Translations under genes and position numbers: made by a program | Notes under the pieces: model-generated | Told to the model about the DNA's origin: nothing | Database searches by the model: none | The model's input: the letters and a program-made list of their open reading frames with translations, nothing else | In this document: piece by piece, positions 3,711 through 30,940 of the stretch | Layout: the number at the start of each line of letters is the position of its first letter | Numbering within the stretch: the first letter of the stretch is position 1 | DNA from: an uncultured Nitrososphaerales archaeon | Lineage (GTDB): Archaea; Thermoproteota; Nitrososphaeria; Nitrososphaerales; Gagatemarchaeaceae | Assembly (NCBI GenBank): GCA_963706445.1 | Contig: OY970160.1 | Location: forward strand, 544,001-608,000 | DNA: 64,000 bases | Direction: 5' to 3'

Positions 3711-4285
3711 TGAAGGGTGGTCGTCAGGGTCGAGTTCGCCGGGTAGGTGATCGTCGGCGAGTAGAGCGCGCGTTGGAGCATGGACCCGCCCGTGATGAGG
3801 TTGAAGATCCCCTCCTCGGCGATGGTGTTGCCGCAGGCTGGCGAGGTGTTCGGGAAGAAGGCGTCTATCTCCATGCCTTTCCCGGACGAAATCGTAAAGA
3901 TGTTCGAGGCGTTGACCCTGTCCTTCTCTGTCTGTAGGGCCGAGTCTCCGGCTGCCGGCGCGGTCGAGCCCGTGCCTATGGCCTGATACTTCGGGAGGCT
4001 GCTCGACGTCCCGATGAGGATGCTGACGACCAGGACCAGGCCGTCGTCGACCGTCTTGTTGTGTGGGGCCCAGAGTCGCCTCGGCAGGGTCCGCCCGAGG
4101 ATCTTTCTCGGCGTGCAGAGCCTTCCCCAGCTGGCGAGGACCCTGTCCTTCTCGAGCTCGTGCATCAGGCCGACAGAGAGGTCCTTCTTGCCGAACAGGC
4201 TCCGGTAGTGGTCATAGCTCGGGACCGTGTCCGGGTTCCAAGCCATGCCCCAGCCAGTCCCTTTGAACAGAACACCCTCTTTCAT
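3686..4285 (-). CDS. Tail-collar/fibre-like protein
   Basis: YQAIGTGSTAPAAGDSALQTEKDR motif typical of phage tail fibre/collar proteins. Confidence 0.65.
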   Translation of the reverse strand: MKEGVLFKGTGWGMAWNPDTVPSYDHYRSLFGKKDLSVGLMHELEKDRVLASWGRLCTPRKILGRTLPRRLWAPHNKTVDDGLVLVVSILIGTSSSLPKYQAIGTGSTAPAAGDSALQTEKDRVNASNIFTISSGKGMEIDAFFPNTSPACGNTIAEEGIFNLITGGSMLQRALYSPTITYPANSTLTTTLQWTGASST

Positions 4286-4304: not shown

Positions 4305-4315
4305 GGCTCTTTAAC
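4305..4315 (-). promoter_or_regulatory. Viral late promoter-like motif GTTAAAGAGCC
   Basis: Motif G lies 30 nt before ATG at 4285. Confidence 0.6.
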
Positions 4316-4316
4316 A

Positions 4317-7300
4317 TCAAATCAATTCGACGGCCTGGATGTGGAACACCGTCGGGCCCCTCGCCTGCTTCTGGGTCTCGAAGACGAAATCCATCCCCAT
4401 CACTTGGAAGTATTCGTTCAGCCCGGTCTGGACGGTGATGACAGTGACCAGCTGGCCGAGCTTCGGGAGCCTCTCCGGGATGTAGCAGTAGCAATCCAGG
4501 ACCCGCTTGCCGCTGCCCGAGAGGCTGACCTGGGCCACGACCAGGTTCACCATCGTCTGCCTGTCTCTGACGTTCTGGTCCGTGACGACGTCCTCCGAGA
4601 GCAGGTATTGGCTCTGGCTGACGGCGTTGTCCGCCTCCGTGACGATGAGCGGGGCCGAGTAGGTCCTGAAGGCGTAAGTGATTGTCGACGCCGTAGGAGT
4701 CCATGCCTGTCCCGTCGGTCGACGTGGCCTTCCTTCCCGAGGTGCCCGAGTCGTGGTACCAGCCATAGGTGTTGCCGGAGTCTCCTATCATGGCCAGGGC
4801 TATCCAATACTTCTGACCGACGAGCACGGTCTGGCTCCCGATGTCTGCCTGGACCCAACCGCCCCCCGAGAGGACGGTCGACACCGGGACCGTGAACTGC
4901 TTGACCAGAGCCCCAGGGACGCCTCCGACGTCGACGAAGACGTAGCCCTGCAGGTCTCCGGTCGGCGTCCCGGTCTTGTTGACGTAGATTCCGATGTATT
5001 GAAGCGTCTCCTGGGTCGGCGCGAACTGGAAGGCAATCCAATTGGCGTTGATCTTGTCGGCTCCTCCCACGACCGACGTCGAACTCTGGTCGATGACGGT
5101 GCTGTCCGTGCCTCCCAGCCCGTAGAGGCGGTTGACCAGGTCGGCGGAGGTGTCCTCGAACGAGAAGACCGCATCGTCGACGGCGTAGAGGACCCTGCTC
5201 TGGTCGTTCCAGGCCGCTCCCGTGGCCGGGTCGTCTGTGATGAGCGCCAACGAGTCCACAATCTCCGGGAAGGCGAAGTGGAGAATCTTCTCCTCGTCGA
5301 CCCACCAAACGCAGCCGGCCTGGGCTGCCAGGTCGTTCAGGATGTCGCTGATGCGCTTGTAGGGCGCGACGTAGCTGGGGATCGATATACCCGTGCTCGC
5401 TATGGTCGAGTTGTAGCCAGTGCCTGCGTAGAGCTGGGCCACCTCTCCGAGCGCCTGCTGGCCGACGGCCACGTCTCCGTCAGACATGGCCCGGTTGATG
5501 ACCTTCACGTCGTCGATGGTCGCGTTGAGCTTGCCCGCTCCGCTCCCCTCTGCCCCTATCCCCAGGGCCGTGTTGTTAGCGACTGGGACGTCAGAGTAAC
5601 TCCCCTGGGCCACCAGAATCCCGTCGACGTAGAGGCTCAGGTTCACCATATCGTAGACCCCGACGACGTGGTGCCAGGCTCCGGTCGAATAGCCCGTGGT
5701 CGCGTCGACGTATCTGAAGGCTGACCCTGTCCCGAACGAGACCCGGAAGGCTCCGGCGTTGGTGACCTGCAGGGCGTAGTTCCGGTTGTTATCTGCCAGC
5801 CCTTTGATGACGATGCTCGTGACCGAGCCCGGGGTGGCGATGACATAGACCCAGGCGGCTATCGTGAACGGCCCGGGGATGTCCAGGGTCGCCGCGTCCT
5901 GGACGGTCAGGTAGTTCGTCGACCCGTCGAAGGTCAGGGCGTGGCCGAAGAGCGAGTTCTGGCCGGAGGCCCAGGTCGGGGAGCCCGTGGCCGTGGCGTT
6001 GTTCCCGTTCCCGCTGACGTCTCCCGGGGTGGTCCCGGAACCTTCGTCGAGCGGCAGGTAGAGCACGAGGTTCGCGCGTCCGGGCCCTACCGTGTGGTAT
6101 TCGATTCCCTCATACTGGAAGACGGTCTGCTGCTGGGTCGGGTAGGCAGACTTGTCCGTGAGCACGAGCTTGACCAGGTTGCCCAGCTCGGTCGTCTGGT
6201 CCGTGCTGTCCACCGTGACGCCGTCCGACTGCTTCTTCTGGAACCTCGAGAAGTTGCCGATGCGCCTGGTGAGCCTCTGGGTCCAGTCGAAGCCGGCCAC
6301 CTCGTAGACCAGCCTCCCCAGGGCTGGCACCGTCGTCTTGTTTCCTGTGACCCGGCCGCTGAAGAACTTCACATACTCGCCTGACCTGCCCGCCCAGATG
6401 TCGACAGGGGTGTCGAGCAGGATCTTCCCCAACAAGACCTGGCCGGAGTCCTCTATCTCCAAGTTGAACGTCGACGCCACTCCTTCGGCTCCTCCGTTCG
6501 TGGTGATGCTCAGGAGGTTGAAGTCTGTCCTCGGGGCGACCGTGATGGGCGGGCTCGTGGCCAGCGTGAGGACCTCCTGGGCGGTGAGGACCCGGTCGTA
6601 GGCTCTGGGGTCGTCCACGGTCGAGTTCTGGGCGTGGTTCACCCCGTCGCCGAAGATGACCTTGTAGCCGGCCGAGACTCTGACGGTGACGGCGAGGGCG
6701 TGCTGGTCGAGCTGGACCCCGTCCAGGTAGAGCGTGATGGTCGCGCCATCGTAGGTCATGGCGAGGTGGTGCCAGCCGTTCAGGGGGGCCGTGTTCGAGC
6801 CGGGGCTGTAAGTGTGCTGGGAGTTGCCCGAATCGCAGAGCCCGTACTGGATTGCAAGGTTGCCGAGGACCTGGATCCACCAGTCGTAGTTCGCGGAGTT
6901 GCTCGTGCCTCCCGTGGCCTTTCTGACGATTACCTCGAGCAGCTGGGACGGAGCCTGCGCGAGGTAGGCCCAGGCGCAGATGCTGAACCCGCCGGTGAAC
7001 TGCAGGGCCGCGTTGTCGGCGACCTCGACCCAGTTGGCTGTGCCGAACTGGAGGGCGTCGCCGAACTTTCCAGGGACCCATGCCGGGGAGCTGATGAGGC
7101 TGCCCGTGTTCCCGTTGCCGCTCTTGTCTGTGGCCGTCGACCCGGTCCCGTCGTCCAGGGGCCAGTAGCCGACCAGGCCCAGGGGGACCGTCGGAGCCGC
7201 CGAGCCGTAGGGGTCTGCGACGTAGGTGAACCCCGGGGTCTTCAGCTGGACCTTCGCCAGCATGGGGCCCGTCTTGAACGGCCCAGTAGGCGGAGGCGGA

Positions 7301-7926
7301 GGCGCAGCTTGGGACGTCCTGAGCTCTATGGCAGCTGCTACCCAGCCAGCGGTGCCCGAGCCTGTCTCCCCAAGGGTCAGGGCCGCCGGCGTGGCGTTGG
7401 TGATGTCCTCGAGGCAGCTCGAGACAACTATCCCATAGATGTCCTGCCGGTTCAGGGTCACCCCTGCCCCGTAGGCTGCCATCGTGACGTTCAGGTGGAC
7501 GACCCAGCCGCCGACCACCCAGTTGTTGTTGTCCTGGGTCGTGACAGCCAGGGTCCCGGGGTCGGCCGATGCGCTCGAGGAGCTGTTCACGTTCCCGATT
7601 GCCGTGACGCTGGTGTAGGACACCGTCTCGGCCGTGAACTTCCCCGACCCGCTGTTGGTGACCGTGATGACGTTGGAGGCTGCCCCGGCGGTGGCGATGC
7701 AAGTCCAGATTTCGACAGAGACGCCTGCCGACCCGCCTGCGATCCCGGTCGCCTTAGAATAGCTGTTCCCTGCCGTGTCCGTGATTGTGGAGACCGACCT
7801 GGCGGAGCCTACTGCGAGGCCGACCAGGACGACTACACAGTCTCCGATGGCAGTCGCGACGGCAGGGAGCGCCCCGGAGATGGCGTTGAACGAGCCGCCC
7901 GTGATGTTCTTCCTGACGCTGGCCAA
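4317..7926 (-). pseudogene. Large tail/adhesin protein with two LamG domains, interrupted by a 1-nt frameshift at ~4706 (about 1202 aa if corrected)
   Basis: LamG motifs WPLDDGTGSTATDKSGNGN and LPLDEGSGTTPGDVSGNGN; removing one G from ACAGGCATGG joins STDGT to AWTPTASTITY..., ending at the stop at 4317. Confidence 0.8.
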
Positions 7927-7927
7927 T

Positions 7928-9379
7928 CTACACCCGCCGTTGGACCTGGGTCTTGAGGGTCTTCAGCATCCAGTCGGTGAGCTCCTGCTTGCTCCCGATG
8001 TAATTCGGGAAGTTGATCTGGTAGACCGTGGCCCCGCCGTTCATGTTCGGGACGTTGGGGGCGCCTGTCAGAGGGACGACCGCCTCGGGGCCGCTTTCGC
8101 CGATGAGCGCGTAGGTCGGCTGGGTGACTATCCCCCCTTCGGCCAGCCCGAGCGCCGAAAGGCCTCCGCTGATGTCTCCTCCTATGGACCCGATGACCCC
8201 GGTGACGTCCTTCACCCCGCCGACCACCAGGTTGATTGCGTCGATGATTGGCTGGATTGCCGTCATTATCGCGCTGAAGATCCCCTGCAGGACTCCCCAG
8301 ACTGTCTGGACGACGGTCTGAATCCCATTCCAAAGGTCGCCCCATGCGGTCTCGAACGCCCCGATTATCGTCTGGATGATTGCCCAGTTGGTCGAGAAGT
8401 AGCCGGAGATGACGTCCCAGACGACCTTCGCCACGGCCTGGATTCCGTCCCAGATGACACCCCAGGCCTTTGCGAAGTCGGCGACGGCTGCCTGGATGAG
8501 CTCGATTATCGGCTTGATGTAGGGGTAGAGGAAGTCGACCACGGCCTGGAACTTCTCCCTGATGCCTCCCCAGTCGTTGGTCCAGGCTTCGTAGAGCACG
8601 GCCATGATTGCGATTATGGCCACGGCTATCAGGATGAGCGGATTCGCGTCCATCACGGCGTTGAACACTCCCTGGGCCGCTGTCATCGCGCCCTGTCCTG
8701 CAGTCACAATCGCCGCCATGGCCGAGTGGGCCGCTCCTGCCAGGGTAGATGCGATGCCCATGCCTGCGAGCCCTCCGGCCAGGTTGGCCACGCTGAAAAT
8801 TAGGTTCGGGATCTTCAGGGCGATGCCGACCAGAGCCTCGTCGTATTTCTGCTGGGCGCTGTTGACGTTGTCGGTCGCCTTCTTCTGGGCGTCCAGGGCG
8901 GTCGTGAGCTTGGTCTGCGCCGCGAGGGCCGCTGCGCTGTTCGGACCTCCTGCGGCCACGGCGTCGTTGTAAGCCTGCTGGTCCGCTGTCACGGCCTGGT
9001 TGGCGCTGTCGAGGGCCAGGTTAGCCGTGTTCAGGTTGTTCTGGGCCGACGTCATCGTGTTGACGATGCTCGTGACCTGGCTCCCTACCGAGGCGAGGCC
9101 CTGGAACGCCTTCTGGCTCTCCATCAGGGTCGTGTTGCCCTGTTTCCAGTTGTTCCAGCTGAGGTTCACCTCCGTGTTGGAGTCCCGCATCGCGGTCCTC
9201 TGCTGGGAGATTGCTTCGTGCAGATAGTTCGCGGCGTCGGTGGCGTCCTGGTCGGCCTGGGCCATCGACTCCGTCGACGTGCTGGCGTCGGCTGCGGAAC
9301 TGGCGATGTCCTCGAACCCGGCGGCGGCGTCTGTCAGGCCGTCGGCCGTGACCTGGTAATCGATGGGGATGTCGACCAA
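7928..9379 (-). CDS. Tail tape measure protein
   Basis: Ala-rich helical protein with NPLILIAVAII, periodic Trp repeats (WGVIWDGIQAV), C-terminal LAEGGIVTQPTYALIGESGPEAVVPL. Confidence 0.9.
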   Translation of the reverse strand: MVDIPIDYQVTADGLTDAAAGFEDIASSAADASTSTESMAQADQDATDAANYLHEAISQQRTAMRDSNTEVNLSWNNWKQGNTTLMESQKAFQGLASVGSQVTSIVNTMTSAQNNLNTANLALDSANQAVTADQQAYNDAVAAGGPNSAAALAAQTKLTTALDAQKKATDNVNSAQQKYDEALVGIALKIPNLIFSVANLAGGLAGMGIASTLAGAAHSAMAAIVTAGQGAMTAAQGVFNAVMDANPLILIAVAIIAIMAVLYEAWTNDWGGIREKFQAVVDFLYPYIKPIIELIQAAVADFAKAWGVIWDGIQAVAKVVWDVISGYFSTNWAIIQTIIGAFETAWGDLWNGIQTVVQTVWGVLQGIFSAIMTAIQPIIDAINLVVGGVKDVTGVIGSIGGDISGGLSALGLAEGGIVTQPTYALIGESGPEAVVPLTGAPNVPNMNGGATVYQINFPNYIGSKQELTDWMLKTLKTQVQRRV

Positions 9380-9733
9380 CTACGCCGACCCCACGAAGTC
9401 GTTGAACGCGTCCTCCAGCCTGCCGTCCATCTCCGCCAGGATGGCCAGGACCGCCGGCGCCAGATAGGGCTGGGCTGCCTGCCTCGAGGTCCCGAACTCG
9501 ACATAGCTGGCGTAGGGCGCCGAAGCTCCCAGAGACCAGCCCCAGGCTGTGGCCGAGACTTCGATGCTGTCTCTCAGCCTCCCGGTCCGGACGGGCACAA
9601 TCTCGCGGGCGTAGGTGGCCATGTCCTCCAGGGAGCCGAGGATGACTTCGACGTCGACCTTCTCCAGGCTCTTGGCTATGGCCCGGGTCTTCCTGATGGC
9701 GTCCTCCAGCCCTGAGACGCTGAAATCACTCAC
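9380..9733 (-). CDS. HK97 gp10-like tail completion protein
   Basis: PVRTGRLRDSI...YASYVEFGT...QPYLAPA signature. Confidence 0.85.
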   Translation of the reverse strand: MSDFSVSGLEDAIRKTRAIAKSLEKVDVEVILGSLEDMATYAREIVPVRTGRLRDSIEVSATAWGWSLGASAPYASYVEFGTSRQAAQPYLAPAVLAILAEMDGRLEDAFNDFVGSA

Positions 9734-10273
9734 GGTAGAACTCCTCCGTGTTCGTGTCCATCTTCCGCTTCGCCTCCTGCAGGGATTCGACCAGGAGCCA
9801 GGACTGGATGAGTTTGGAATCTGCCGTCTCCGCCTCCTCTATCGAAAGGTGGTAATCGAGGACCAGGTGCCGGAGCCTCATGCTCCGCCGGAGCCAGGGC
9901 GTCAGGGTGCGCTGGTCGCCGAAGAAGACGAAGCGGCGGAGGCCGCGAGCTTCGTCCTTTCCGATAAAAAAAGGCCGTTGTATTTCTGGACAAGCTGGTC
10001 GACGATGGAACGCCTCCCGAGCTCCAGGTCCTCGGGGGTGACGCCTGCAGGCTCGACGATGGCCAGGGCGATTGCTCTGTAGGTGAGCGCCATCTTCTGC
10101 TCCGGGGTCTCCGCCTTCGCGTTGCCGATCTCGTCGTAGGCCTTGGCGTGGCTCTTGTCTTCGAAGACGAAGTGAAACTTCTCCCCGCTGACCGGGTCGA
10201 CCACGTCGAAGGGGTAGGTCCTCGGCGTGAGGAACGACTGCATCTTCTGGAGCTCTGTGGGCTCTGTCTCCAT
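9726..10273 (-). CDS. Tail assembly chaperone long form (gpGT-like) via -1 frameshift at 9971-9965
   Basis: T TTT TTA heptamer in correct phase; -1 frame open to TGA at 9726. Confidence 0.8.
9902..10273 (-). CDS. Tail assembly chaperone short form (gpG-like)
   Basis: ATG at 10273 immediately after tail tube stop; METEPTELQKM... Confidence 0.8.
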   Translation of the reverse strand: METEPTELQKMQSFLTPRTYPFDVVDPVSGEKFHFVFEDKSHAKAYDEIGNAKAETPEQKMALTYRAIALAIVEPAGVTPEDLELGRRSIVDQLVQKYNGLFLSERTKLAASAASSSSATSAP

Positions 10274-10275
10274 GT

Positions 10276-11169
10276 CTAAGTTATCGCCGCCGACTGGGCC
10301 TGAAAGCCCCATTTCTCCGGGAGCGGTTCTTTGCTGTCCGCGTCGTAGGTTCTGTCCGTAAGGTCTGTCAGGTTGACGACGCTCAGGGTGAGGGTCGAGG
10401 TGGACGAGAGCAGGACCCAGGCGAGGGTCCTGGCCGTGCCAGCCTTCGCGTCTGTCTCGAGCGTGACCGCCGTGTATTCGTTGGTCAGGTCTCCCTTGAC
10501 GGTCCTGGCCAGGGACGGCTCCATGAACGAAGCCTTCTGGGAACCGAGAATCCACTTGGCGCCTACCTCTCTGGTGAACGTCACAGAAATCTGCTCGACC
10601 GGGATGGCCCCAGCGTTCCATGTCACCGGGTTGGCCCCTCCGCTTGCCATGCCCCAGAGGGCGGTCGCGTCGGCCGTCGCGTGGCTCCCGGCGCCGATGT
10701 AGTCCGAGGCGCTGGGCGTGTTGATCTGGTCGTGGGCCATGGTGACTTGGACCATTATCGTTGGCTTGCTGACGTCGCCGGTTATCTTCAGGGTCTTGAC
10801 CCTGGACCTCGTGCAGGTGACGAAGTTGGTCGTCCCGTTGAGCTTGAACGAGAATCCGATGCTGAGCGACTTGTCCGTGGTCCCTGAGCCTCCGCCGACG
10901 GCGCTGATGCCGTACTTCAGGAAGGTGGAGTTCGTGATGCCGAACTCGAAGGTCGACTCGAAGACCTGCCTGCCGAAGACCATCTTATAGAAGTCTTCTC
11001 CGCCGTGCCTCCGGTAGGCGTCGTTCTCGAGTGTAATCTTGGGCGTCCACTTGGCCACGTTGGCCAGGAACACCATCGCCGGGTTTGTCGGGATGGTTCC
11101 TTCCGTCGACTCCTCCACATACTCGAGCTGGTTGACGATCTTGCTCGCATGGGTCAGGGTCGCTGCCAT
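10276..11169 (-). CDS. Major tail tube protein
   Basis: N-terminal LEYVEESTEGTIPTNP, 297 aa, beta-rich, directly before the chaperone. Confidence 0.85.
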   Translation of the reverse strand: MAATLTHASKIVNQLEYVEESTEGTIPTNPAMVFLANVAKWTPKITLENDAYRRHGGEDFYKMVFGRQVFESTFEFGITNSTFLKYGISAVGGGSGTTDKSLSIGFSFKLNGTTNFVTCTRSRVKTLKITGDVSKPTIMVQVTMAHDQINTPSASDYIGAGSHATADATALWGMASGGANPVTWNAGAIPVEQISVTFTREVGAKWILGSQKASFMEPSLARTVKGDLTNEYTAVTLETDAKAGTARTLAWVLLSSTSTLTLSVVNLTDLTDRTYDADSKEPLPEKWGFQAQSAAIT

Positions 11170-11420
11170 CAGGCGTTAACCTCCGCGACTGTCGTGAAGA
11201 TGACCTCTCTGTTCCAGGTCCCGCAGGCGGGACAATGCCAGTTTTTGACGACGCCTCCGTTGTCCGTGGGCTCGGTAAATTCTACGACTGGGGTGCCTGC
11301 ACAGGAATCGCTCAGATGCTCGAAAGTGAACTTGCCGCCCTCCTCAGGCTGTTTCTTACCCGTGGTCTCCTCGACCTGGAGGAGCTGTCGGGCTGGCCGG
11401 CTTATTAGCCTACGATTCAA
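11169..11420 (-). CDS. Small Zn-ribbon protein
   Basis: WHCPACGTW; stop/start overlap with the tube gene. Confidence 0.5.
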   Translation of the reverse strand: MNRRLISRPARQLLQVEETTGKKQPEEGGKFTFEHLSDSCAGTPVVEFTEPTDNGGVVKNWHCPACGTWNREVIFTTVAEVNA

Positions 11421-11463
11421 AAACGGGGCGCGGCCTACTCCTCTGGGGTAGGTCGCCGGGTGC

Positions 11464-11676
11464 TCAATACCACCAGGGCTTCGACGTCGAGAACCACCAG
11501 GTGACTGCGCCCGAGGGCGTGTTCACGGTGGCGTTCCCGGTCTTGTCCCAGGTGACTTCGGAGTTGTTCACGGCCCTGTAGGTGGCTTTCTGTGCCTCCC
11601 TCTCCTCTGAGGTGGCGAACTGGAAAAGGTTGTCGGCTCCCGTGTCGTTGTTTCTGACGTAGAGCGGGAAGGTCAA
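11464..11676 (-). CDS. Hypothetical protein
   Basis: TTGA overlap with upstream stop; typical codon use. Confidence 0.5.
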   Translation of the reverse strand: MTFPLYVRNNDTGADNLFQFATSEEREAQKATYRAVNNSEVTWDKTGNATVNTPSGAVTWWFSTSKPWWY

Positions 11677-12056
11677 GATGCTGGGGCTCCTGCTGCAAAC
11701 TTGGCGTCGAGGGCTGCTACGAGGGCGTTGGCGATGGCCTGGTCAGATGCCGGGAGCTTTGCGATCTCTGTCTGGGCGATTGCCTTTGCGTCCGTCCAGG
11801 TCTTGGCGATTCCGGCGGTGGTGGTGGTCGACCCGACCGGGACGGTCCCGGTGTCGACGAAGGCGATGAGGTCAGAGACCACGTCGCCTCCCAGGACTCC
11901 GACTCCTGTGGCGACGGCGGTGACGAGGGCCTGGTGTGCAGGCGAGAAGGCGCTTGCGATTGCTGGGACGTTCCCGGCCACGAAGCCGAGCACGCCTCCG
12001 AGAGACCAGAGGATGCGGTCGAGGATGTTCTTCTGCTTTAGCGACAGTGATACCAT
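11673..12056 (-). CDS. Small two-helix membrane protein (holin-like candidate)
   Basis: Two hydrophobic segments after a basic N-terminus; preceded by promoter motif. Confidence 0.55.
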   Translation of the reverse strand: MVSLSLKQKNILDRILWSLGGVLGFVAGNVPAIASAFSPAHQALVTAVATGVGVLGGDVVSDLIAFVDTGTVPVGSTTTTAGIAKTWTDAKAIAQTEIAKLPASDQAIANALVAALDAKFAAGAPAS

Positions 12057-12080
12057 TTGCGAGTTCTCAAGTCGCAGGCA

Positions 12081-12091
12081 CCGTCTTTAAC
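12081..12091 (-). promoter_or_regulatory. Viral late promoter-like motif GTTAAAGACGG
   Basis: 35 nt before ATG at 12056. Confidence 0.55.
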
Positions 12092-12096
12092 GGGAC

Positions 12097-12390
12097 TCAG
12101 GCCTTGACCTTCTCGTAGTAGGCCGTCACGGTGCCTACCGAGTGGACCCACTCCGGCTTGTAGTCGGCCGCTTCGCCTGGAGGCTCCGGGGCTTCCCTGA
12201 ACCCGCTGAAGTCCCACCAGCTGATGCCCGCCGCCGGGTTCGCCTTGAGCAGGAGGACCTGCTGGGCCACTTCGAGCTCCATCTTCCATTTCTTGTCCTT
12301 GTTGGCGTTCCCCTTCGCCCAGACGTGGACGGAATGGTTGTCCAGGTATTCCCACCTGGCCGCCCCCATGCTCGTAGGCCTGAGGACGGG
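12097..12390 (-). pseudogene. 3' remnant of a probable tail terminator/completion gene
   Basis: Gene-like frame PVLRPTSMGAARWEYLDNHSVHVWAK...GTVTAYYEKVKA joined out of frame to the capsid gene. Confidence 0.55.
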
Positions 12391-13225
12391 TGAGGTCGGG
12401 GTCGAAGATGGTCTTGACTTGTGGGTATCCGATGGCTCCGAGGTCCGCCGTCCCTGCGTCGAGGGCAGCGGCCGGGTTGTGGTATCTGACGAAGGTGTTG
12501 CTGCGGAAGTTCTTCCAGACGGTGGGGTGCATGGCGACCGTGTCGACCTGGAACCCAGACTGCGCGATGGCGTCATACTGGGCGTCGATGTCGGTCAGCG
12601 GGTTGTAGAGGCTGAAGTCGTTGTTCGAGTTCATGGTGGCGTAGCTGCCGACGCCTGCTCCTGCGCCTGCGTCCGACTCTGCGATCGTGGCCAGCTGGCT
12701 GTTCTCCAGCTTGACGAGGGCCATGGCGGCGTTGCTGACGTGGAGGGCGAAGACGTCGTGGACTGCCTGCTTCTCGGACTCGTCCGAGAGCAGTATGTGG
12801 GCGACGTTCTTGCCGATGGCTGCCAGGTCGAAGGTCGTCCTGGCGTAGGTCTGCTTGACGACCTGGGCCTCCTCCAGCGGGAGGATGCGGCCGGTCGCCG
12901 AGAACTTGGTGCCGAGGTCCACACTGAGGACCAGCTGCGGCGAGTTGATGATCTGGAAGCACTCCCTCAGGCGGTATTGTCTGAAGGTCAGACCGAGGAC
13001 CTGGTCGAGCACGACTATCGCCTTGATGGTCGAGCTGTCCGGGGTGTCGAAAATGCCTGCGCGGAGCTCCTGTTCTGCGGCTCTCAGGAACCTGGGCTCT
13101 ACTTCGGTGGGCCTGCCTTTCGCTCCGAACTTGGCGACGTATTCGCTGGTCTCGGGGTGGCCGACCGCTCCTCTGTAGAAGACCTGGTCGTCAGGGTTGA
13201 ACCAGGCGAGGTGTGTTCCGTCCAT
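12389..13225 (-). pseudogene. Major capsid protein (HK97-like), truncated after ~279 aa
   Basis: Follows scaffold and cement genes; LSDES...HVSNAAMAL...FQVDTVAMHPTVW...GYPQVKTIFDPDLT, then atypical read-through to 12038. Confidence 0.8.
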
Positions 13226-13228
13226 GTC

Positions 13229-13669
13229 CTATGCACTTATCCCCGCTCGGTAGCCGAGCAGAATCCTTCCGGTGCCGTTCTTCGTGATGGCTTCGTAGGC
13301 CATGCCCACGATGAGCCTGAGCTCCTTGGTCTGTGACTGGACGTAGTTGCTGCTGAAGTCGGTCGCCTCCGCCAGCTGGACCTTTGTCTTGGCCGTGGTG
13401 CCGGGCTTCACGAAGTTCCCGAGCGGGACGGCTGCGACGTTGTCCTCTGCAACCTCGACGATGCCTTCGAGGAGGCACCTGCCGGTCCCTGCTTTGGTGA
13501 TGGCTTCGACCGCGACCACATAGGGGCCTGCGTCTGTAGTGTTCTGGGCGTCGTGGACCTTCCCTGCGCGTAGGACGCACAGGTCGCCTTTGACGATGGC
13601 CGATGTGTTGTCCTCGGTGAGCTGGATGAACCGCGCTCCAATCTCACTGTCTACGTCTCCTACCGCCAT
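13229..13669 (-). CDS. Capsid cement/decoration protein (DUF2190-like)
   Basis: AIVKGDLC...VAVEA...G.CLLEGIVEV...IVGMAYEA; between scaffold and capsid genes. Confidence 0.7.
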   Translation of the reverse strand: MAVGDVDSEIGARFIQLTEDNTSAIVKGDLCVLRAGKVHDAQNTTDAGPYVVAVEAITKAGTGRCLLEGIVEVAEDNVAAVPLGNFVKPGTTAKTKVQLAEATDFSSNYVQSQTKELRLIVGMAYEAITKNGTGRILLGYRAGISA

Positions 13670-15054
13670 TAGGCGCCGCCTCCTCTGTTTGCTCCAAACA
13701 AGCTCGAGTACAGTTCGTCGACGATGCTGTCAGGCGCCATGCTGTCTGCGGCGGCCGCCTGGAAAGTGACCGTGGATGCTCCCCTCGTCTTGAGGGTCCC
13801 TGCGAGTATCTTCTGATAGGTCTCGCCGATGACGTTGAGCGCATCCGCGCTGAGCGTCTTGATGGCTTCGACCTCTTTGGCGAAGTCTGCCTGCCTGGCC
13901 AGACCCGCCTGAACCTTGAGCTCTACCACCCTGTTGATGACCTTGTCGTGCTCTGCGGCGATCCTCTGGGCCTTCTCCATCTCAAGGACGTCGAGCTTGG
14001 TCTTCAAGCCTTCGATGGTGGCATTGAACGCAGCACACTTGGCGTCCATGTCTGCCTTCATGTCCGCGATCTTCTTCTCCGCTTCTGCGGGCTCCATTCG
14101 AGGTTGGTTCGCCGTCGGAGGCTCTTTAACGTGGTCCGCTTCCGAGAATTTCGACCAGGCGTAGGCGTAGAGCTTGTCGCTCTGGATCTTGTCTCCGATG
14201 AGCTGGGCGGCTTCTCCGACCGTCTTGGCCAGGCCTGCCTGGATGGCAGCCCCGACGCTCCTGTTCTTGATGGCCGCGCAGACCTTCTGGGCCGTGTCCT
14301 TGTCGCCGTACTTGTCCATCATCTTGGACAGGCACTGCTCCCAGGGGAACGAGCCAGGGCCTGACGCGGGCGCGGCGTAGTAGTCCTTGAGCAGCTCGTC
14401 CATCGACGCGACGAAGTCCAACGTCTGGGGCTTCTGCTCTCGTGCTTCTTTAACGGCCAGCTCGAGGGCGGCCGAGAAGTTGCAGGTCCTGACGTCGGGG
14501 CTGACGCAGGTCCCCTTGACCCGGGCCTGGCTTCCGAAGGCCGGCCTGGCGACGAAGGCGAGGTGCCTGCCGAGGAACGACTTGACCAGCTCCAGCCCTC
14601 CGCTCTGAGTGACGTTGTTCGTGTCTACCCGGATCTGGGGGCTGACCCACATCCATGCGCCGCTCTTGATCCCCTCCCAGGCTGCGTCGTCTGTTATCTC
14701 CACGATGCCGAAGGCGTCCTGGGCCTGGCCGACCTCGATTATCGTCCCGACCTTGTGGCTCTGCTCGTAGGCTGCGAGCTCTGCCGGGCTGAAGCTCTGA
14801 AGATCTCCTGCAGCGTCCTTGTAGGTCCCGTGCTCGTTGGGATCTCCGGGTGGACCGAGGACAGGCCTGCCGATGAACGACCTGAGCCCGTCCATGATGG
14901 CGTCCGTCGTCACGCCCCACTTGTTGAGGCTCATGCTGTCGTCGATGAGGAAGACCTTGACGTAGTGCTTGCCAGACTTCTCGTAGGGCTCGAAGCTACG
15001 GCTGAGATAGTTCAGAACCTGAGGCGTCTGGACTTGGGTAAGAGATTGTGACAC
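13669..15054 (-). CDS. Prohead protease-scaffold fusion
   Basis: N-terminal NKWGV...FIGRPVL...VSPQI...HLAFVARPAFG; C-terminal coiled coil. Confidence 0.8.
   Translation of the reverse strand: MSQSLTQVQTPQVLNYLSRSFEPYEKSGKHYVKVFLIDDSMSLNKWGVTTDAIMDGLRSFIGRPVLGPPGDPNEHGTYKDAAGDLQSFSPAELAAYEQSHKVGTIIEVGQAQDAFGIVEITDDAAWEGIKSGAWMWVSPQIRVDTNNVTQSGGLELVKSFLGRHLAFVARPAFGSQARVKGTCVSPDVRTCNFSAALELAVKEAREQKPQTLDFVASMDELLKDYYAAPASGPGSFPWEQCLSKMMDKYGDKDTAQKVCAAIKNRSVGAAIQAGLAKTVGEAAQLIGDKIQSDKLYAYAWSKFSEADHVKEPPTANQPRMEPAEAEKKIADMKADMDAKCAAFNATIEGLKTKLDVLEMEKAQRIAAEHDKVINRVVELKVQAGLARQADFAKEVEAIKTLSADALNVIGETYQKILAGTLKTRGASTVTFQAAAADSMAPDSIVDELYSSLFGANRGGGA
14120..14130 (-). promoter_or_regulatory. Intragenic promoter-like motif GTTAAAGAGCC
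   Basis: 33 nt before in-frame ATG at 14097. Confidence 0.6.
14444..14454 (-). promoter_or_regulatory. Intragenic promoter-like motif GTTAAAGAAGC
   Basis: 33 nt before in-frame TTG at 14421. Confidence 0.5.
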
Positions 15055-15616
15055 GGCTGGCGTCTTCCTGGGCCACCACCGCTTTTAACGCGGCTTCCTT
15101 GACCACAGGCAAGCCGGCCGCCACCTCCTCGGCGAGCTCCTCGAGGAGCGGCTCCATCTCAGAGAGGTTGTCCCCCAGGTGCAGGCCGGGGCAGACCTGC
15201 TGGGCGTCTTCCAGGTAGCCCACGTTGCCGTCGGCGTCATAGTGGAACGGGTAAAGCCTGCAGGGGTGCGGCCTGGCTCCGTACACCGCGCACCTCTGGT
15301 CGTCCTTGAGGAACGGGCAAGCCTCGAAGGGCTTGACGTTGAGCTGGCTCAGGCCGAAGTCTCCCTCATGGGTGCAGTCCTTCACAAAGTCGAGGTTCGC
15401 CGGGGCCCTGGCGGCCAGGGCTTTGACGTCTCGAGGCAGGAGCGACAGGGCCCTGGGGTGGCAGCACTTCCCGCAGTCTGGCAGGCACTCGAACAGGATG
15501 AGCTTGCCTTCCTGGGTAACCGGGACCTGGACCTTGACGCCGTTCTTGGCCTGATACTGGGCGAAGGCGACGATGCGGGCGTTGGCCACCTTCGGGTCCA
15601 CGGCTGGGGGAGTCAT
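14996..15616 (-). CDS. YkgJ/FliB-family CxxCxxCC cysteine-cluster protein
   Basis: FECLPDCGKCC...CPFL...RCAVYGARPHPCRLYPF...CPG. Confidence 0.9.
   Translation of the reverse strand: MTPPAVDPKVANARIVAFAQYQAKNGVKVQVPVTQEGKLILFECLPDCGKCCHPRALSLLPRDVKALAARAPANLDFVKDCTHEGDFGLSQLNVKPFEACPFLKDDQRCAVYGARPHPCRLYPFHYDADGNVGYLEDAQQVCPGLHLGDNLSEMEPLLEELAEEVAAGLPVVKEAALKAVVAQEDASRVTISYPSPDASGSELSQP
15079..15089 (-). promoter_or_regulatory. Viral late promoter-like motif GTTAAAAGCGG
   Basis: 35 nt before GTG at 15054. Confidence 0.55.
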
Positions 15617-17385
15617 TCTTCCGTCGCATCCAGGGTCTTGTCGGTCAGCTTAAGGCCAATCGTCTTGACGCTGAGCGAGGCCGTCAGGGTCTTCGCGCTG
15701 AGCCTCACCGTGTGGTCCTTCTTGCTCAACATGACAGTCAGGGTCTTCGTGATGAGCCGGAGCGCTATGGCCAGGACCATCCTGGAGATGGCCGATGCGG
15801 CGAACCCTACCGCGAAGCTCGCAGACGCCGCCTGGCTGAACGCGAACCCGGGACTCATGGACAGGCCGAAGGACGCCTGGACCGACTGGCTGAGCAGCTC
15901 CGTCGCCGTGAACCCTACGCCGAAGCTCGCAAGCACGCCCTGGCTGACCACGAACGAGGCGCTGAACCCTATCCCGAAGGTTCCGGGCGCAGTCGCGCTC
16001 TGGACCCCGCCTGCGGCGACTGCGACGGCCGACATCCCGAGAGCGAACTCTGCAGCAACGGCCTGGCTCATCGTCTGGGCTGCCGAGAACTGGACGCCGA
16101 AGGTCCCGGAGACGAGGATGACGTTGACCTCGGCCGCAGCGAACCCTACCCCGAATGACGCTCCGACAGCCATCGTGTTCTTCTCAGCGGCGGACATGGC
16201 CAGCCCGAACGATGCGGCGACGGACTGGCTGAGAGACTCCGACGCTGAGAGCTGGATGCCGAAGGACGCTCCTATAGACACGACATTGATCTCCGAGGCC
16301 GTCAAGGCCACTCCGAACGAAGCAGCCGCCTTCTGTGTGAGCATCTGCTCAGCTGCAGACATCGCCACGCCGAACGACCCCGCTACGCCCTGGCTGAGAA
16401 GCTCGGCCGCTGTGAACCCGGCCCCGAACGATGCGCCTATGGCGACCGTGTTCTTCTCGGCTGCTGCCAAACCGACCCCGAAAGTCCCTGCGACCAGGAC
16501 GGCGTTCGCCTCGACCGCAGACATGGCTACCCCGAAAGACGCCCCGGTCGACATGATGTTCTTCTCTGCGGCGGACATCTGGACCCCGAAGACGCCAGCC
16601 GATGCCTGTTGCGGGAACGCCTCGGAGGCTGCCATCGCCACCCCGAAGGCCCCCGACGTCGCCTGACTCGCCATCTTCTCTGCAGCAACGAAGGCCGCTC
16701 CGAACGAGGCAGAGACCGCTTGGCTCATCTTCTGGGTAGCCGAGAGCCCGACGCCGAAAGAGGCCGCCACCGGGGCGGGGGATATGAGCTCGAGGATTAC
16801 CGCCTGCCATTGGGTCGACCCCGACCCCGTCTCGCCGACCGTGACGGAGCCGCCCGACGCGCTCTGAAGGTCGAGCAGGGACTCCGTGATGACGGTCCCG
16901 ACTACCTCGGTGTCCCTCTGGGTGACGCCCGCCCCCGATGCCGAGGTGGTGACGTTGAGGTTGACGACCCATCCGGCCACGGCCCAACTCTGCGCCCCGA
17001 CCGTCAGCGAAATCGTGCCGGGGTCTGACGTCCCTGCGGCCGAGGAGTTTACCCCTTCGGCGAGGACGCTCGAATAGGAGGCTGTCGACGCCCCGAACTT
17101 TCCGTTGGCCGAATTGGTTATGGCGATGACGTTAGAAGCGTTCGCGTGGGTCGCGCCCTTGCAAGTCCAGATTTCGACGTCCCTTGAGGCCGTGGCCCTG
17201 CCGACCCTCTTGGCGTAGGTGTTCCCTCCGGTGTCTGTGATGGTCGAGACGACGGTCGCCGCAAGTGCAGTAGCGACGACTACGACGATCCAGTCCCCGA
17301 GCGCGGTGTTGATGGCGGGAAGGTTGACGGTGTTGGTCGCGCTTGAGCCCTGAACCGCTCCCGTAATGTTGAAGGGGTTGGCCAT
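15613..17385 (-). CDS. Repetitive fibre protein (590 aa)
   Basis: ~200 aa beta domain, ~18 repeats of 18-19 aa starting xFG, five 9-aa C-terminal repeats. Confidence 0.8.
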   Translation of the reverse strand: MANPFNITGAVQGSSATNTVNLPAINTALGDWIVVVVATALAATVVSTITDTGGNTYAKRVGRATASRDVEIWTCKGATHANASNVIAITNSANGKFGASTASYSSVLAEGVNSSAAGTSDPGTISLTVGAQSWAVAGWVVNLNVTTSASGAGVTQRDTEVVGTVITESLLDLQSASGGSVTVGETGSGSTQWQAVILELISPAPVAASFGVGLSATQKMSQAVSASFGAAFVAAEKMASQATSGAFGVAMAASEAFPQQASAGVFGVQMSAAEKNIMSTGASFGVAMSAVEANAVLVAGTFGVGLAAAEKNTVAIGASFGAGFTAAELLSQGVAGSFGVAMSAAEQMLTQKAAASFGVALTASEINVVSIGASFGIQLSASESLSQSVAASFGLAMSAAEKNTMAVGASFGVGFAAAEVNVILVSGTFGVQFSAAQTMSQAVAAEFALGMSAVAVAAGGVQSATAPGTFGIGFSASFVVSQGVLASFGVGFTATELLSQSVQASFGLSMSPGFAFSQAASASFAVGFAASAISRMVLAIALRLITKTLTVMLSKKDHTVRLSAKTLTASLSVKTIGLKLTDKTLDATEE

Positions 17386-17408
17386 CGCGGGGTCGTTTCG
17401 TCTGGTCC

Positions 17409-17419
17409 GGCTCTATAAC
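17409..17419 (-). promoter_or_regulatory. Viral late promoter-like motif GTTATAGAGCC
   Basis: 34 nt before ATG at 17385. Confidence 0.6.
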
Positions 17420-18153
17420 TTGCCGACCGTCTCGCGCCTGACCCTGCCGTCCCACATCCTGAGGTGGACGCACTTGACGCGGGTGTCGACCCAGACGCCG
17501 TGGCCGGCCTTCTGGGCGATGAAGCAGAAGATGTGGTCCTCTGAGAAGACTATCTCTCCTCCTTCGACGTCGACGACGCGGGTGAGGTCGAACCTGACCC
17601 TGGGGTCGTCCAAGACCTTCCTGGAGATGAACATGCAGGCCGTGTTGACGGCGCCGACCTTCGCGAGATCTTCCTCGGGCATCTCCTTTGCGAACTGGAA
17701 GAACGGGCGGAAGTATCCGAACCCCGGCCTGAAGCGGCCGTCCTGGTCGGGGATGTTCACGAGGCCCCCGACGATGTCCTTGCCGTCTGCTATGAACCTC
17801 CTGATGGCGTCTCTCGGCGGCTGGACGTCCGAGTCGACGAACCAGCCGTAGTCGCTCCCCTTCGCCCGGGACAGGAGCAGGTTCCTGATGGCGCCGAGCT
17901 CCGTCATCCTATTGTGGTGGAAGTCCTCGTCGGCCCTCTGGGTTACTTCGTAGCGCATCACCTGGTGGTCGAGCCTGAAGTTCTCTTCCACGAAACGGGC
18001 CTGATCGTCTCCCTCCGCCGGGACCGCGAAGACGAACTTCAGCCTGTCCTTGGGCCAGTCAAGACGATACCACGAAGACCAGACCGGGAGCAGGTTCTCG
18101 TTGTGCTGAGGCTGCCCGCTCAGGGGAGTGAGGACGACGACGGAAGGGCGCAT
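17413..18153 (-). CDS. GT-A fold glycosyltransferase (family 2-like)
   Basis: RNLLL...WFVDSD (DxD)...DIVGG...SEDHIFC...VWVDTRVKCVH. Confidence 0.9.
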   Translation of the reverse strand: MRPSVVVLTPLSGQPQHNENLLPVWSSWYRLDWPKDRLKFVFAVPAEGDDQARFVEENFRLDHQVMRYEVTQRADEDFHHNRMTELGAIRNLLLSRAKGSDYGWFVDSDVQPPRDAIRRFIADGKDIVGGLVNIPDQDGRFRPGFGYFRPFFQFAKEMPEEDLAKVGAVNTACMFISRKVLDDPRVRFDLTRVVDVEGGEIVFSEDHIFCFIAQKAGHGVWVDTRVKCVHLRMWDGRVRRETVGKL

Positions 18154-18163
18154 GGCGCCGGGC

Positions 18164-18850
18164 TTACGTCAGGGCGCCTGTGTAGGTGACGGTCAGGGTC
18201 CCTGTCGCGGAGACCGGGAATCCCGCCCCTGCGTTGACCGTGTCGTGGCAGATGAGGAACTGGAAGGTCGCCGACGTCATCACGAGGCCGACCTCCTTGT
18301 AGGTGATTGTCGCTCCTGAGCTGTTCGTGATGGTCGCCGTGATCGAGAGGTTGTTGTTGGCGCTGATCGCACCGACGAGGGCTTGGGCCGAGTAGTTCGT
18401 GGCGACGTTGTAGTTCGAGGTCGCTCCGCCTCCGAAGGTCTGGAGGTTGTAATCGTTGAAGTTCGGTCCTGTCGCGCCTGTCCCGGCCACGATGTAGGGC
18501 GGGATCGCGCCTCCGCTGTTCCCTGCTGAGACCGAGCGGTTGGTGTTGTTCACATCGAGGATGTTGACGGCCGCTCCGGCGATGCCTCCGAGGATCGCCT
18601 GGGCCATCCACTTGCCGAACTGGAGCGTCGAAAGGTCTGACCAGCACTCGCCGACTATGCCTCCCTGGCAGTCTGCGAACTTGTCCAGGAGGACCGTCCC
18701 GTCTGACTGGGCCTTGCCTGCCGGGAAGTGGGCGTAGCCGTGCTCCGGGCACGGGTCCCTGGCGACGATGTGGGTCGACATCTTTGGACCGAAACCGCCC
18801 ATGGTTGCTGGAGGAGTTGTCTCGCGTGGAATCGGTAGCGATGCCGACAT
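18164..18850 (-). CDS. Virion structural protein, fibre/collar-like
   Basis: IVAGTGATGPNFNDYNLQT and TNSSGATITYKEVGL motifs. Confidence 0.6.
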   Translation of the reverse strand: MSASLPIPRETTPPATMGGFGPKMSTHIVARDPCPEHGYAHFPAGKAQSDGTVLLDKFADCQGGIVGECWSDLSTLQFGKWMAQAILGGIAGAAVNILDVNNTNRSVSAGNSGGAIPPYIVAGTGATGPNFNDYNLQTFGGGATSNYNVATNYSAQALVGAISANNNLSITATITNSSGATITYKEVGLVMTSATFQFLICHDTVNAGAGFPVSATGTLTVTYTGALT

Positions 18851-18872
18851 CAGACTCAGACGAACGTCGGTC

Positions 18873-18883
18873 GGCTCTTTAAC
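18873..18883 (-). promoter_or_regulatory. Viral late promoter-like motif GTTAAAGAGCC
   Basis: 33 nt before ATG at 18850. Confidence 0.6.
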
Positions 18884-19232
18884 CTGCGCTCGGAACGACT
18901 GCGACGATGAAGGTGTCGATGTTGTTCTCGACGTAGCTGGCCTTCGTGAGCTCTACTTCGCCGTTGAAGTTCGTGACCTGGGTCGGGATGGCTGCTGCCT
19001 TCAGGGCTGCCGCATCCGCCGGCGTCGGGGTCCAGCAGGCGACCCCGTTAGCCAGGGGTGCGACCCCGGGGATGACCACCGACAGGGCCAGGACCGCAGG
19101 GTCGTCCAGCCAGACCTTCAGCGTAATCGTGAACCCTGTCAGGTCGACCACCGTCTTGCCGTCGTTCTGTGTGACCGTGATGTTCACCGGGAAGCCGTAG
19201 TTCCCGGCCTTGATCTGCAGGGTCTGGGTCAA
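18879..19232 (-). CDS. BppU N-terminal-like small structural protein
   Basis: IKAGNY...VDLTGFTITL...NGVACWTPTPAD...FNGEVELT. Confidence 0.6.
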   Translation of the reverse strand: MTQTLQIKAGNYGFPVNITVTQNDGKTVVDLTGFTITLKVWLDDPAVLALSVVIPGVAPLANGVACWTPTPADAAALKAAAIPTQVTNFNGEVELTKASYVENNIDTFIVAVVPSAG

Positions 19233-20771: not shown

Positions 20772-20948
20772 TTACTCGGACCTGTCGCTGGCCTCCGATA
20801 TTATCGTGACACCTGGCCTGTCCAGGCCTTCGTCGGACCACCGCTTCCTGGTCTTGGTCTTCCTGGAGACCGCTACTGCAGTAGGCTCGGTCGGCTTCTC
20901 CTTCAGCGGCTCGCCGAGCTTCAGAGCGTGAGGCTCTTCGTCGCTCAT
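20772..20948 (-). CDS. Small hypothetical protein
   Basis: ATG overlapping upstream gene end; stop abuts the portal start. Confidence 0.45.
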   Translation of the reverse strand: MSDEEPHALKLGEPLKEKPTEPTAVAVSRKTKTRKRWSDEGLDRPGVTIISEASDRSE

Positions 20949-21187
20949 TTGACTGTCCCTCCTTCGAGGCGGTGGTGCAGACGGGACCGTGTGACCTTGT
21001 TCTGGACTGTCCCGACTTTCAGTCCCAGTAAGGATGAGATCTTCAGCAGAGGGACGCCGCCCTCGAAGAGCCGCTTGAGCACGGACACCTCCTTTTCGGT
21101 CCAATGATGATAATTGACTTGGTTTTCAGCGATCATTTTGTCGAGTTCCTTCTCGAGGTCCTTGCCGGACAGTTCGAGGAGCTTCAT
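20945..21187 (-). CDS. Small helix-turn-helix protein (Myb/GcrA-like)
   Basis: HWTEKEVSVLKRLFEGG...ISSLLG...TVQNKV. Confidence 0.65.
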   Translation of the reverse strand: MKLLELSGKDLEKELDKMIAENQVNYHHWTEKEVSVLKRLFEGGVPLLKISSLLGLKVGTVQNKVTRSRLHHRLEGGTVK

Positions 21188-21972: not shown

Positions 21973-22162
21973 AGCCTGGCTCCGCACTCGCACTCATGGG
22001 TCTTGTGCGGGTTGTTCATGACGACCGGGGGCATCGAACGGACGGCGACGCTGAACCTCGGGACCTTGCAGGCGTGCCTGGAGCGGGCCTTCCCGTCGGC
22101 TCCTCTGTGGTAGCTCCTCCAGGTGACGCCACAGGCGGGGACCTGGACCTGGACCTTGCTCA

Positions 22163-23533: not shown

Positions 23534-23535
23534 GT

Positions 23536-25136: not shown

Positions 25137-25286
25137 GGGAACATTTCCTCATGGGGGCACAACTTACTTTGAACCATCCCCATATAGTCTCTCGTTGTTC
25201 TATACTTCTTCCAGCACCGCTTGCATTGTTTGAACTTTGGTCGGTTCGGCCAATCTCCTTTGCGCGTCCTCGCCTTCCCCTCTGTT

Positions 25287-28432: not shown

Positions 28433-28433
28433 G

Positions 28434-28952: not shown

Positions 28953-28955
28953 GTG

Positions 28956-29515: not shown

Positions 29516-29562
29516 GATGGCCCTCTGGGTCTCGGGCTTCGTCTACGTCCCCCCTGTAGGCG

Positions 29563-30805: not shown

Positions 30806-30940
30806 AATCACTCACGCGCACTCTGAAGCAATAGTGAATATAAGTGTTTGCTAATCACTACCAATGCACGGGATATGCTATACCAAAAGTGTAGTGAGTC
30901 CAAATCACTTATAATCACCTCTGTTCCTGTAGGATGACCG
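30806..30940. promoter_or_regulatory. Divergent promoter/operator region
   Basis: AT-rich; AATCAC at 30806, 30853, 30903, 30913; TAGTGA at 30832, 30892; TATA-like AATATAAG and TTATAA. Confidence 0.7.

Follow-up and report, generated by a model that had tools for sequence, protein, structure and literature searches.

In the structural half of a remnant tailed virus, carried by an uncultured archaeon of the order Nitrososphaerales, one short word, GTTAAAGA(GCC), recurs at the head of seven or more gene units, lying on the minus strand 30 to 35 nucleotides (nt) upstream of a start codon. The window in which these copies were found is a 64,000-nt stretch of contig OY970160.1 (assembly GCA_963706445.1, positions 544,001 to 608,000), and the positions given below count from its first base. 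We propose that the boxes form the core of a family of virus promoters, built on a TATA box of the host type and yielding leaderless mRNAs from several transcription units, with nested messages for a scaffold protein among them; we put the probability of this reading at roughly two in three. A promoter role of the boxes as such is likely, and the element would in kind be an ordinary archaeal TATA promoter, reused as a repeated viral word.

In the mechanism that we envisage, TTAAAG would serve as the TATA box for the TBP, TFB and RNA polymerase of the host, and transcription would begin at the start codon that lies 30-35 nt downstream, or a few bases ahead of it, giving a leaderless mRNA. The boxes would thereby divide the structural module into several units, consisting of the 228-amino-acid (aa) and glycosyltransferase-like genes, the 590-aa fibre gene, the protease-scaffold gene, the 127-aa gene after the capsid gene, and the tail-fibre-like gene. 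Two copies lie inside the protease-scaffold open reading frame (ORF) and would most likely drive shorter, 3'-co-terminal leaderless messages, from which N-terminally truncated scaffold-type products of about 250 and 142 aa could be made.

The seven-site pattern is real and far from chance. The exact 11-mer GTTAAAGAGCC occurs in three minus-strand copies (4315, 14130 and 18883; boxes are named by their highest coordinate), against 0.03 expected from shuffles; GTTATAGAGCC stands at 17419, and GTTAAAG or GTTAAAA at 12091, 14454 and 15089. When the motif was counted in provirus and host, GTTAWAGAGCC was found four times in the 1,817,757-bp genome, each time within the structural stretch of the window and on its minus (coding) strand. 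The shorter GTTAWAGA occurs 28 times genome-wide, with six copies on the coding strand of the 14.6-kb stretch against about 0.09 expected, and five of the 32 genomic copies of GTTAAAG fall within the stretch. All motif copies fall within 4305-18883, on the coding strand, and none in 21000-31000. The GCC that follows GTTAWAGA in four of the seven copies exceeds what composition predicts.

The initial annotation had listed these seven minus-strand sites with spacings of 30, 33, 33, 34, 35, 33 and 35 nt, in DNA poor in TTAA. Its coordinates and spacings proved exact, and TTAA is indeed depleted genome-wide (observed/expected 0.34). It had also spoken of one motif before seven starts, which needs qualification on both counts: the full 11-mer GTTAWAGAGCC is present at four sites, whereas the other three share GTTAAA(G/A), that is, 7-8 of the 11 positions; and at five boxes the start that follows is the first one possible for its gene (18850, 17385, 15054, 12056 and 4285), whereas 14097 and 14421 are in-frame codons of the single ORF 13669-15054, so that boxes 14130 and 14454 lie within coding sequence. 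A random position has a chance of about 0.8% of such promoter-like placement, given about 22 gene starts in 17.4 kb. TTTAAA is strongly depleted as well, with 45 sites in the 1.8 Mb host genome; restriction avoidance or selection against spurious TATA boxes are possible reasons for the scarcity of both words.

Several boxes share their bases with other signals (Table 1). The 117-aa ORF upstream ends with the TAA inside the 18883 box, and the glycosyltransferase-like gene (17413-18153) with the TAG inside the 17419 box. After the 15089 box, GTG 15054 is the sole start-type codon to be found once the in-frame stop upstream has been passed and before the conserved portion of the protein is reached. 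The 4315 box begins one base past the ancestral stop of the tail-fibre gene (TGA 4319-4317) and is intergenic only in that ancestral frame; the longer ORF that reaches 4282 over this box is the product of a frame change near 4712, as judged against the continuous ORF of a related virus. The 12091 box lies inside the 3' end of the fused capsid ORF (12038-13225), where it reads Val-Lys-Asp, and the three boxes in coding sequence (14454, 14130 and 12091) are all in frame as GTT AAA GAx. Two further roles were ruled out: that of a terminator, since T runs are absent, and one of the Shine-Dalgarno type, for which 30-35 nt is too distant.

Table 1. Boxes and structural-module genes of the window, with the corresponding boxes of the related virus (contig L007). 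For the seven boxes, distances run from the first G to the start codon.
Feature	Window position	Strand	Start codon or gene	Counterpart in L007
Box GTTAAAGAGCC	18873..18883	-	33 nt before ATG 18850 (228-aa gene, 18164-18850)	
Box GTTATAGAGCC	17409..17419	-	34 nt before ATG 17385 (590-aa fibre-like gene, 15613-17385)	
Box GTTAAAAGCGG	15079..15089	-	35 nt before GTG 15054 (461-aa protease-scaffold gene, 13669-15054)	8150, GTTAAAGACGC; TTG 8182 at 32 nt, the gene-caller's start of P0004
Internal box GTTAAAGAAGC	14444..14454	-	in-frame Val-Lys-Glu 201-203; 33 nt before in-frame TTG 14421 (Leu212)	8752, exact GTTAAAGAGCC; in-frame TTG at 33 nt
Internal box GTTAAAGAGCC	14120..14130	-	in-frame Val-Lys-Glu 309-311; 33 nt before in-frame ATG 14097 (Met320)	9085, GCTAATAAGAGTC; before the conserved Met
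Box GTTAAAGACGG	12081..12091	-	35 nt before ATG 12056 (127-aa gene, 11673-12056)	14145, GTTAAAGAGCG; ATG 14179 at 34 nt
Box GTTAAAGAGCC	4305..4315	-	30 nt before ATG 4285 (199-aa tail-fibre-like gene, 3686-4285)	19908, degenerate GATTAAGAGAG; TTG 19941 at 33 nt
Variant A/T box ATAATAT	20798..20804	-	34 nt before TTG 20770, start of the portal gene (19229-20770)	6021, GCTAAAGACCG; 32 nt before the portal TTG, a start conserved in both viruses
Host-type box TTATATT	30837..30843	-	32 nt before GTG 30811 (59-aa gene, early region)	
Extra box of L007				12800, GTTAAAGACGA; GTG at 32 nt; in the 2.7-kb segment lost from the window
Terminase	22163-23533	-	structural-module gene	
Portal	19229-20770	-	structural-module gene	
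Protease-scaffold	13669-15054	-	structural-module gene, 461 aa; N domain 23-195, helical domain 235-309, coiled-coil C part from 322	
Capsid protein	12038-13225	-	structural-module gene	
Tail tube-like	10276-11169	-	structural-module gene	
Tape measure	7928-9379	-	structural-module gene	
Laminin_G fibre	4800-7926	-	structural-module gene	
Tail-fibre-like	3686-4285	-	structural-module gene, 199 aa	

Fit to host promoters and conservation in a related virus

The spacing had led the initial annotation to suggest an archaeal TATA box with leaderless or short-leader messages, and four independent lines support this reading: the archaeal nature of the genome, a peak of host A/T boxes at the same distance, a host motif obtained without bias, and the retention of box and spacing in a relative. 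The genome scores 1455 bits with the archaeal and 1058 bits with the bacterial model of small-subunit (SSU) rRNA. Runs of six A/T bases, most commonly TTAAAT, show a sharp peak 29-33 nt upstream of the starts of long host ORFs rich in G+C at third codon positions (GC3-rich). Enrichment at this leaderless distance is about 2.7- to 2.8-fold for ATG and for TTG, 1.3-fold for GTG and 0.7-fold for the control CTG, and the host therefore appears to be rich in leaderless messages and to use TTG as a regular start. Thaumarchaeota have been classed among the leaderless-rich genomes (GeneMarkS-2 group D), in which the box lies about 26 nt ahead of the gene start (PMC6028130). Of 675 unambiguous first start codons in the host, 283 are TTG, 272 ATG and 120 GTG, an unusually high share for TTG.

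A host motif trained on the six-base A/T runs was dropped as circular, being unable to score TTAAAG, and was replaced by one obtained through expectation maximization (EM) on 675 upstream regions with no A/T pre-selection. This motif, AAaSsTTAAATA, lies 34-38 nt from the start, and the viral word aligns to it as xxxxGTTAAAGA at an equal distance; counted from the first base of the box, the start follows at 29-33 nt in the host and at 29-34 nt from the first T of the viral word. The sixth box position of the host motif allows G (0.21), the next position is A (0.50), and the viral sites score 4.3-8.0 bits, which places them in the top 0.03-0.5% of genome positions. Because the eight-base viral core aligns to the host motif at the same distance, it is explained by the host TATA box. 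The motif is low in information and has many matches, so the strand bias of these matches within the module is uninformative. Its best match anywhere in the provirus, the TTATATT box of the early region, served as a comparison site.

The relative for which DNA is at hand is a single IMG/VR contig (IMGVR_UViG_3300038415_000044 / Ga0187870_1000751), referred to here as L007; the entries L007, L017, L026 and L027 are one sequence with 99.995% identity. It is collinear with the provirus, with protein identities of 51-81%. When viral contigs were scanned with the 590-aa and capsid proteins and with alignments for the protease-scaffold and the terminase, this was the one close virus obtained, the remaining matches being distant relatives with a GC content of 33-39%, which were unsuited to the box test because A/T words carry no information there. 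A capsid search of 401 genomes of the order yielded no close provirus, and two scans of genome contigs gave no match. Closer homologues of the protease-scaffold protein (P0002 and P0003) come only from Logan assemblies and were compared as protein sequences.

GTTAAAG occurs five times in this contig (L007/L026), always on the coding strand, against 0.43 expected. Boxes stand at all five shared syntenic positions, 32-34 nt before ATG, TTG or GTG starts, and in pairwise DNA alignments they form islands of identity amid diverged flanks. The GCC extension follows one of the five copies, and the full 11-mer is found at a different syntenic site from those of the window.

Might the boxes be functionless relics of acquired cassettes (moron boundaries) or recombination linkers, which carried their start spacing along? 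Two of the four full copies, 18883 and 17419, do belong to a four-gene cassette (15617-19229) with no counterpart in the relative, and the provirus is decaying. Yet the motif failed as a marker of insertion or deletion borders between the two viruses, with which the box positions do not coincide; the boxes persist amid diverged flanks and, as rare codons, in both viruses; and their spacing equals that of host promoters. We regard such an origin as very unlikely, and favour a promoter role.

Other short elements were noted in the course of this comparison. Within the segment found only in L007 (10849-13595), position 11086 holds a further box, TTATAG. Another word that recurs, GGCTAATAAG, lies at 11403-11412 on the minus strand of the window, at a syntenic intergenic site conserved in L007 (14663); it also occurs in L007 at 9082, where it replaces the promoter box at the second internal site, and is followed in that virus by a T-rich stretch. 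It may represent a double stop plus terminator. A run of seven T in the tail-chaperone region is kept in both viruses (window 9966-9974, minus strand; L007 16099-16105) and fits a programmed frameshift site.

Boxes inside the protease-scaffold gene

The AlphaFold model of the protease-scaffold protein (mean predicted local distance difference test, pLDDT, of 80) comprises a confident N domain (residues 23-195) joined by a poorly ordered linker (196-234) to a helical domain (235-309), which a short linker (310-321) connects to a long coiled-coil helix (322-382). A profile search found three parts with similar limits (roughly 5-200, 222-308 and 322-458) as separate proteins elsewhere. The family has no Pfam or PDB match by sequence, and the protease is recognised by its fold only: structure matches of the N domain are confined to capsid maturation proteases (Foldseek probability up to 1.0, with such proteases making up all of the top 38 matches). 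Residues 28-204 of the model align with the protease of varicella-zoster virus (VZV) with a VIA Z of 10.3 and a root-mean-square deviation (rmsd) of 3.5 over 125 residues, and with T4 gp21 with a VIA Z of 10.2 and an rmsd of 2.8 over 125 residues. The modelled N domain has the assemblin/gp21 fold of capsid proteases.

The two internal boxes (Val201-Glu203 and Val309-Glu311) and their candidate starts (Leu212 and Met320) sit in the two low-confidence linkers, the 14454 box between the protease and the helical middle domain and the 14130 box ahead of the coiled-coil helix. Both starts, TTG and ATG, are kept in L007, and the Met is also present in P0002-P0004. Both codons are rare in the provirus genes, with GTT used for 4.3% of Val and AAA for 13% of Lys residues; the 29 Val-Lys pairs include only three written GTT-AAA, and all three are motif sites. 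L007 uses the same two codons at the shared site. The retention of rare codons in both viruses, together with the identity of the boxes amid diverged flanks, therefore points to selection on the DNA word.

These in-frame copies could in principle be read at the level of the protein, with Val-Lys-Glu/Asp as a protease cleavage or linker motif and the other copies as chance TATA-like words. Capsid proteases are known to cut scaffolds at linkers, and Val-Lys-Glu (VKE) at the first linker is conserved in four homologues, P0002-P0004 included. This would, however, leave the rare codons GTT and AAA in both viruses unexplained, and the other four copies are intergenic or overlap stop codons. At the second linker, moreover, the relatives encode QANK in place of VKE and yet retain an A/T box before the conserved Met, which argues against a purely protein-level signal. 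We consider this explanation highly improbable. Internal promoters, giving leaderless co-terminal messages for N-terminally shortened products of the scaffold type, would be the most economical reading of the arrangement.

State of the provirus and the case for an additional factor

The motif sits in the structural module of a tailed, HK97-type provirus; the module reads on the minus strand, and host genes begin near 31900. The cassette absent from L007 lies between the portal gene and a CxxCxxCC-domain gene and contains ORFs of 117 aa, 228 aa, 246 aa (glycosyltransferase-like) and 590 aa (fibre-like). The capsid ORF is chimeric: its residues 1-283 correspond to the capsid protein of L007 (9998-10849) and the remainder to the C end of another ORF of that virus (13385-13900), with the junction at about 12377-12402, where about 2.7 kb with three to four genes of the relative have been lost. 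In the Laminin_G fibre gene (4317-7926) the reading frame changes near 4712 (about 4700-4720), whereas the corresponding ORF of L007 (18312-19907) is continuous; the change could be a frameshift mutation or a sequencing error. Given the fused capsid ORF, the missing genes and the frame change, the provirus is probably defective, and the boxes are therefore best regarded as belonging to the virus lineage, not as elements still in use.

The host genome (95% complete) has no archaeal amoA, a gene present in same-order genomes of two other families (those compared were G030, G045, G064 and G096) and by which the order is recognised as Nitrososphaerales; the host is probably a member of this order that does not oxidise ammonia. 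DNA of this genome occurs in soil and peat metagenomes. Four DNA runs matched to the stretch contributed identical low-depth fragments only, with neither variants nor relatives. In the non-structural region, a low-complexity tract of (CTAC)n followed by (CAAA/CAA)n (about 26800-26900, minus strand) may be an origin or recombination site.

Several observations weigh against the promoter reading. The host motif has A at its first two positions (0-1) in 52% and 57% of sites, and at the seven viral sites neither position is ever A, an outcome with a chance of about 2e-5 if these were true host-type promoters; the viral boxes thus lack the purine/A-rich B recognition element (BRE) of a TBP/TFB core promoter and, for this reason, are possibly weak or inactive on their own. 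Host boxes of five A/T bases in the form S-TTAAA-S stand at promoter distance in 8% of cases against a background of 5%, and host GTTAAAG in two of 27; TTAAAT, TTATAT and TTTATA boxes do so in 26-34% (background 5%). The use of TTG as a leaderless start is suggested by statistics, and conservation of the boxes is seen in a single independent relative. The deletion at the capsid gene and the frame change mean that the boxes may be out of use in the present genome, and no RNA run was found to contain the DNA of window positions 11500-19500.

Dependence of the boxes on an additional factor is plausible in view of the missing BRE-like positions and the poor record of short boxes in the host. The initial annotation had gone further and proposed that the extended box defines a late regulon under a viral activator. 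The restriction of the box to the structural module and the absence of the upstream A's throughout favour this proposal, "late" being judged from gene content; against it, GCC follows four of seven copies here and one of five in the relative, and neither a shared flanking element nor, by Pfam, a recognisable regulator came to light. In its fuller form the proposal is of a distinct class of late promoter, in which the GAGCC extension and the missing BRE would make a viral activator, or a viral TBP/TFB-like factor, a requirement. The early region, in contrast to the structural module, carries the host-type TTATATT; the lack of the A-rich positions at all seven copies would hardly be expected of true host-type promoters; the GCC tail is commoner than composition predicts and the full 11-mer recurs in the relative, if at another site; and S-TTAAA-S boxes make poor host promoters. 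On the other side, the extension reaches only 3 nt beyond the host motif, and no second shared element of the upstream activating sequence (UAS) or operator kind rose above shuffled controls between 70 nt upstream and 35 nt downstream of 11 boxes. A Pfam scan of the 30 viral ORFs, from which small novel DNA binders would escape, recognised no TBP, TFB, helix-turn-helix (HTH) or ribbon-helix-helix (RHH) protein, and its sole candidate was a weak zf-HC3 match at 24234-24500. Archaeal regulators that bind just downstream of a TATA box are, furthermore, more typically repressors than activators. A separate late class of this kind is thus possible but doubtful.

The position of the tail, between TATA box and start site, suits a repressor equally. 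A provirus repressor or host factor bound to GAGCC might block recruitment of the polymerase and keep the structural genes silent in the lysogen; archaeal repressors such as MDR1, Phr and LrpA bind between TATA box and start site, and boxes that match the host TATA core would need silencing in a lysogen. Five bases devoid of dyad symmetry would, however, be ill suited as an operator, the relative conserves the extension weakly, and the Pfam scan identified no candidate repressor. We judge an operator unlikely, and retain the host-type TATA promoter as the preferred description of the boxes.

Comparison with known systems

We know of almost nothing on the layout of transcription in tailed viruses of Nitrososphaerales or of uncultured archaea, and the literature searched describes no promoter consensus for thaumarchaeal or other archaeal tailed viruses, which is not proof that there is none. 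In most bacterial tailed phages the structural module is one late operon. If the boxes are promoters, that of the provirus lineage would instead be a string of short units, each with its own leaderless message, several of them beginning with TTG or GTG. A rule placing GTTAAAGA 30-35 nt upstream would then help to reannotate gene starts and to recognise transcription units in related viruses from metagenomes, and the missing BRE and the conserved tail would offer a testable handle on the silencing of late genes in the lysogen. Should the boxes prove to be a late class in need of a viral factor, no late-promoter consensus would have been defined earlier for an archaeal virus of the tailed-virus/herpesvirus realm. 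The predicted features of most interest are the multi-unit structural module, the leaderless TTG and GTG starts and the promoter-within-ORF layout of the protease-scaffold gene.

How do the boxes compare with archaeal core promoters? Leaderless core promoters consisting of TATA box plus BRE have been mapped in Haloferax, Halobacterium and Sulfolobus. The viral elements resemble them in that the A/T box fits the host consensus, stands at the host distance from the start and follows the orientation of the genes, with no Shine-Dalgarno-like sequence between box and start. They differ in having only five A/T bases flanked by G, no A-rich upstream element, a partly conserved GCC tail and a near-identical word repeated within one virus module, and in being known from sequence, whereas start sites in the three named genera have been mapped.

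A short, nearly invariant TATA-like word restricted to structural genes recalls the T4 late promoter, TATAAATA, which is read by gp55/gp33. It likewise recalls the TATT boxes of beta- and gamma-herpesviruses, which are read by a viral TBP mimic (PMC6541308, PMC7498053). Unlike these, the provirus has no such factor recognised by Pfam among its 30 ORFs, and the core of its word is compatible with the host box. Closer in its host domain is the case of Halobacterium salinarum, in which intraRNAs yield protein isoforms (PMC6161675): there too, internal starts within ORFs are followed by in-frame start codons that give N-terminally shortened isoforms in an archaeon. Those are cellular genes and the evidence is experimental, whereas the case proposed here is viral and is drawn from sequence, with a conserved promoter word as its mark.

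A close parallel to the proposed nesting is the UL26/UL26.5 pair: across herpesviruses, the scaffold is documented to have transcripts of its own, nested in the gene for the protease and more abundant (PMC11565193). The two systems have in common an N-terminal protease of the assemblin fold, a C part of scaffold type, a shorter in-frame ORF beginning at a domain border and, as predicted here, a TATA-type promoter embedded in the coding sequence of the longer gene. In the archaeal virus there would be two internal box-start pairs, and hence three nested products, and the messages would be leaderless, one with a TTG start. We offer only tentatively the combined view of a thaumarchaeal tailed virus with herpesvirus-like nested scaffold promoters and a BRE-less, GAGCC-tailed late class in need of a viral factor. 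If the nesting itself is borne out, it would provide a first case, among the archaeal viruses of the tailed-virus/herpesvirus realm, of a nested protease-scaffold system driven by promoters.

Phage lambda C/Nu3 and similar phage genes share with the provirus the co-terminal in-frame products and the order of portal, protease-scaffold and capsid genes. In lambda the short product arises by internal initiation of translation on one mRNA, in contrast to the internal promoters that we propose. An archaeal virus would thus set the ratio of protease to scaffold by internal transcription, in the manner of herpesviruses, where lambda does so by internal translation, a contrast that would fit the eukaryote-like transcription machinery of its host.

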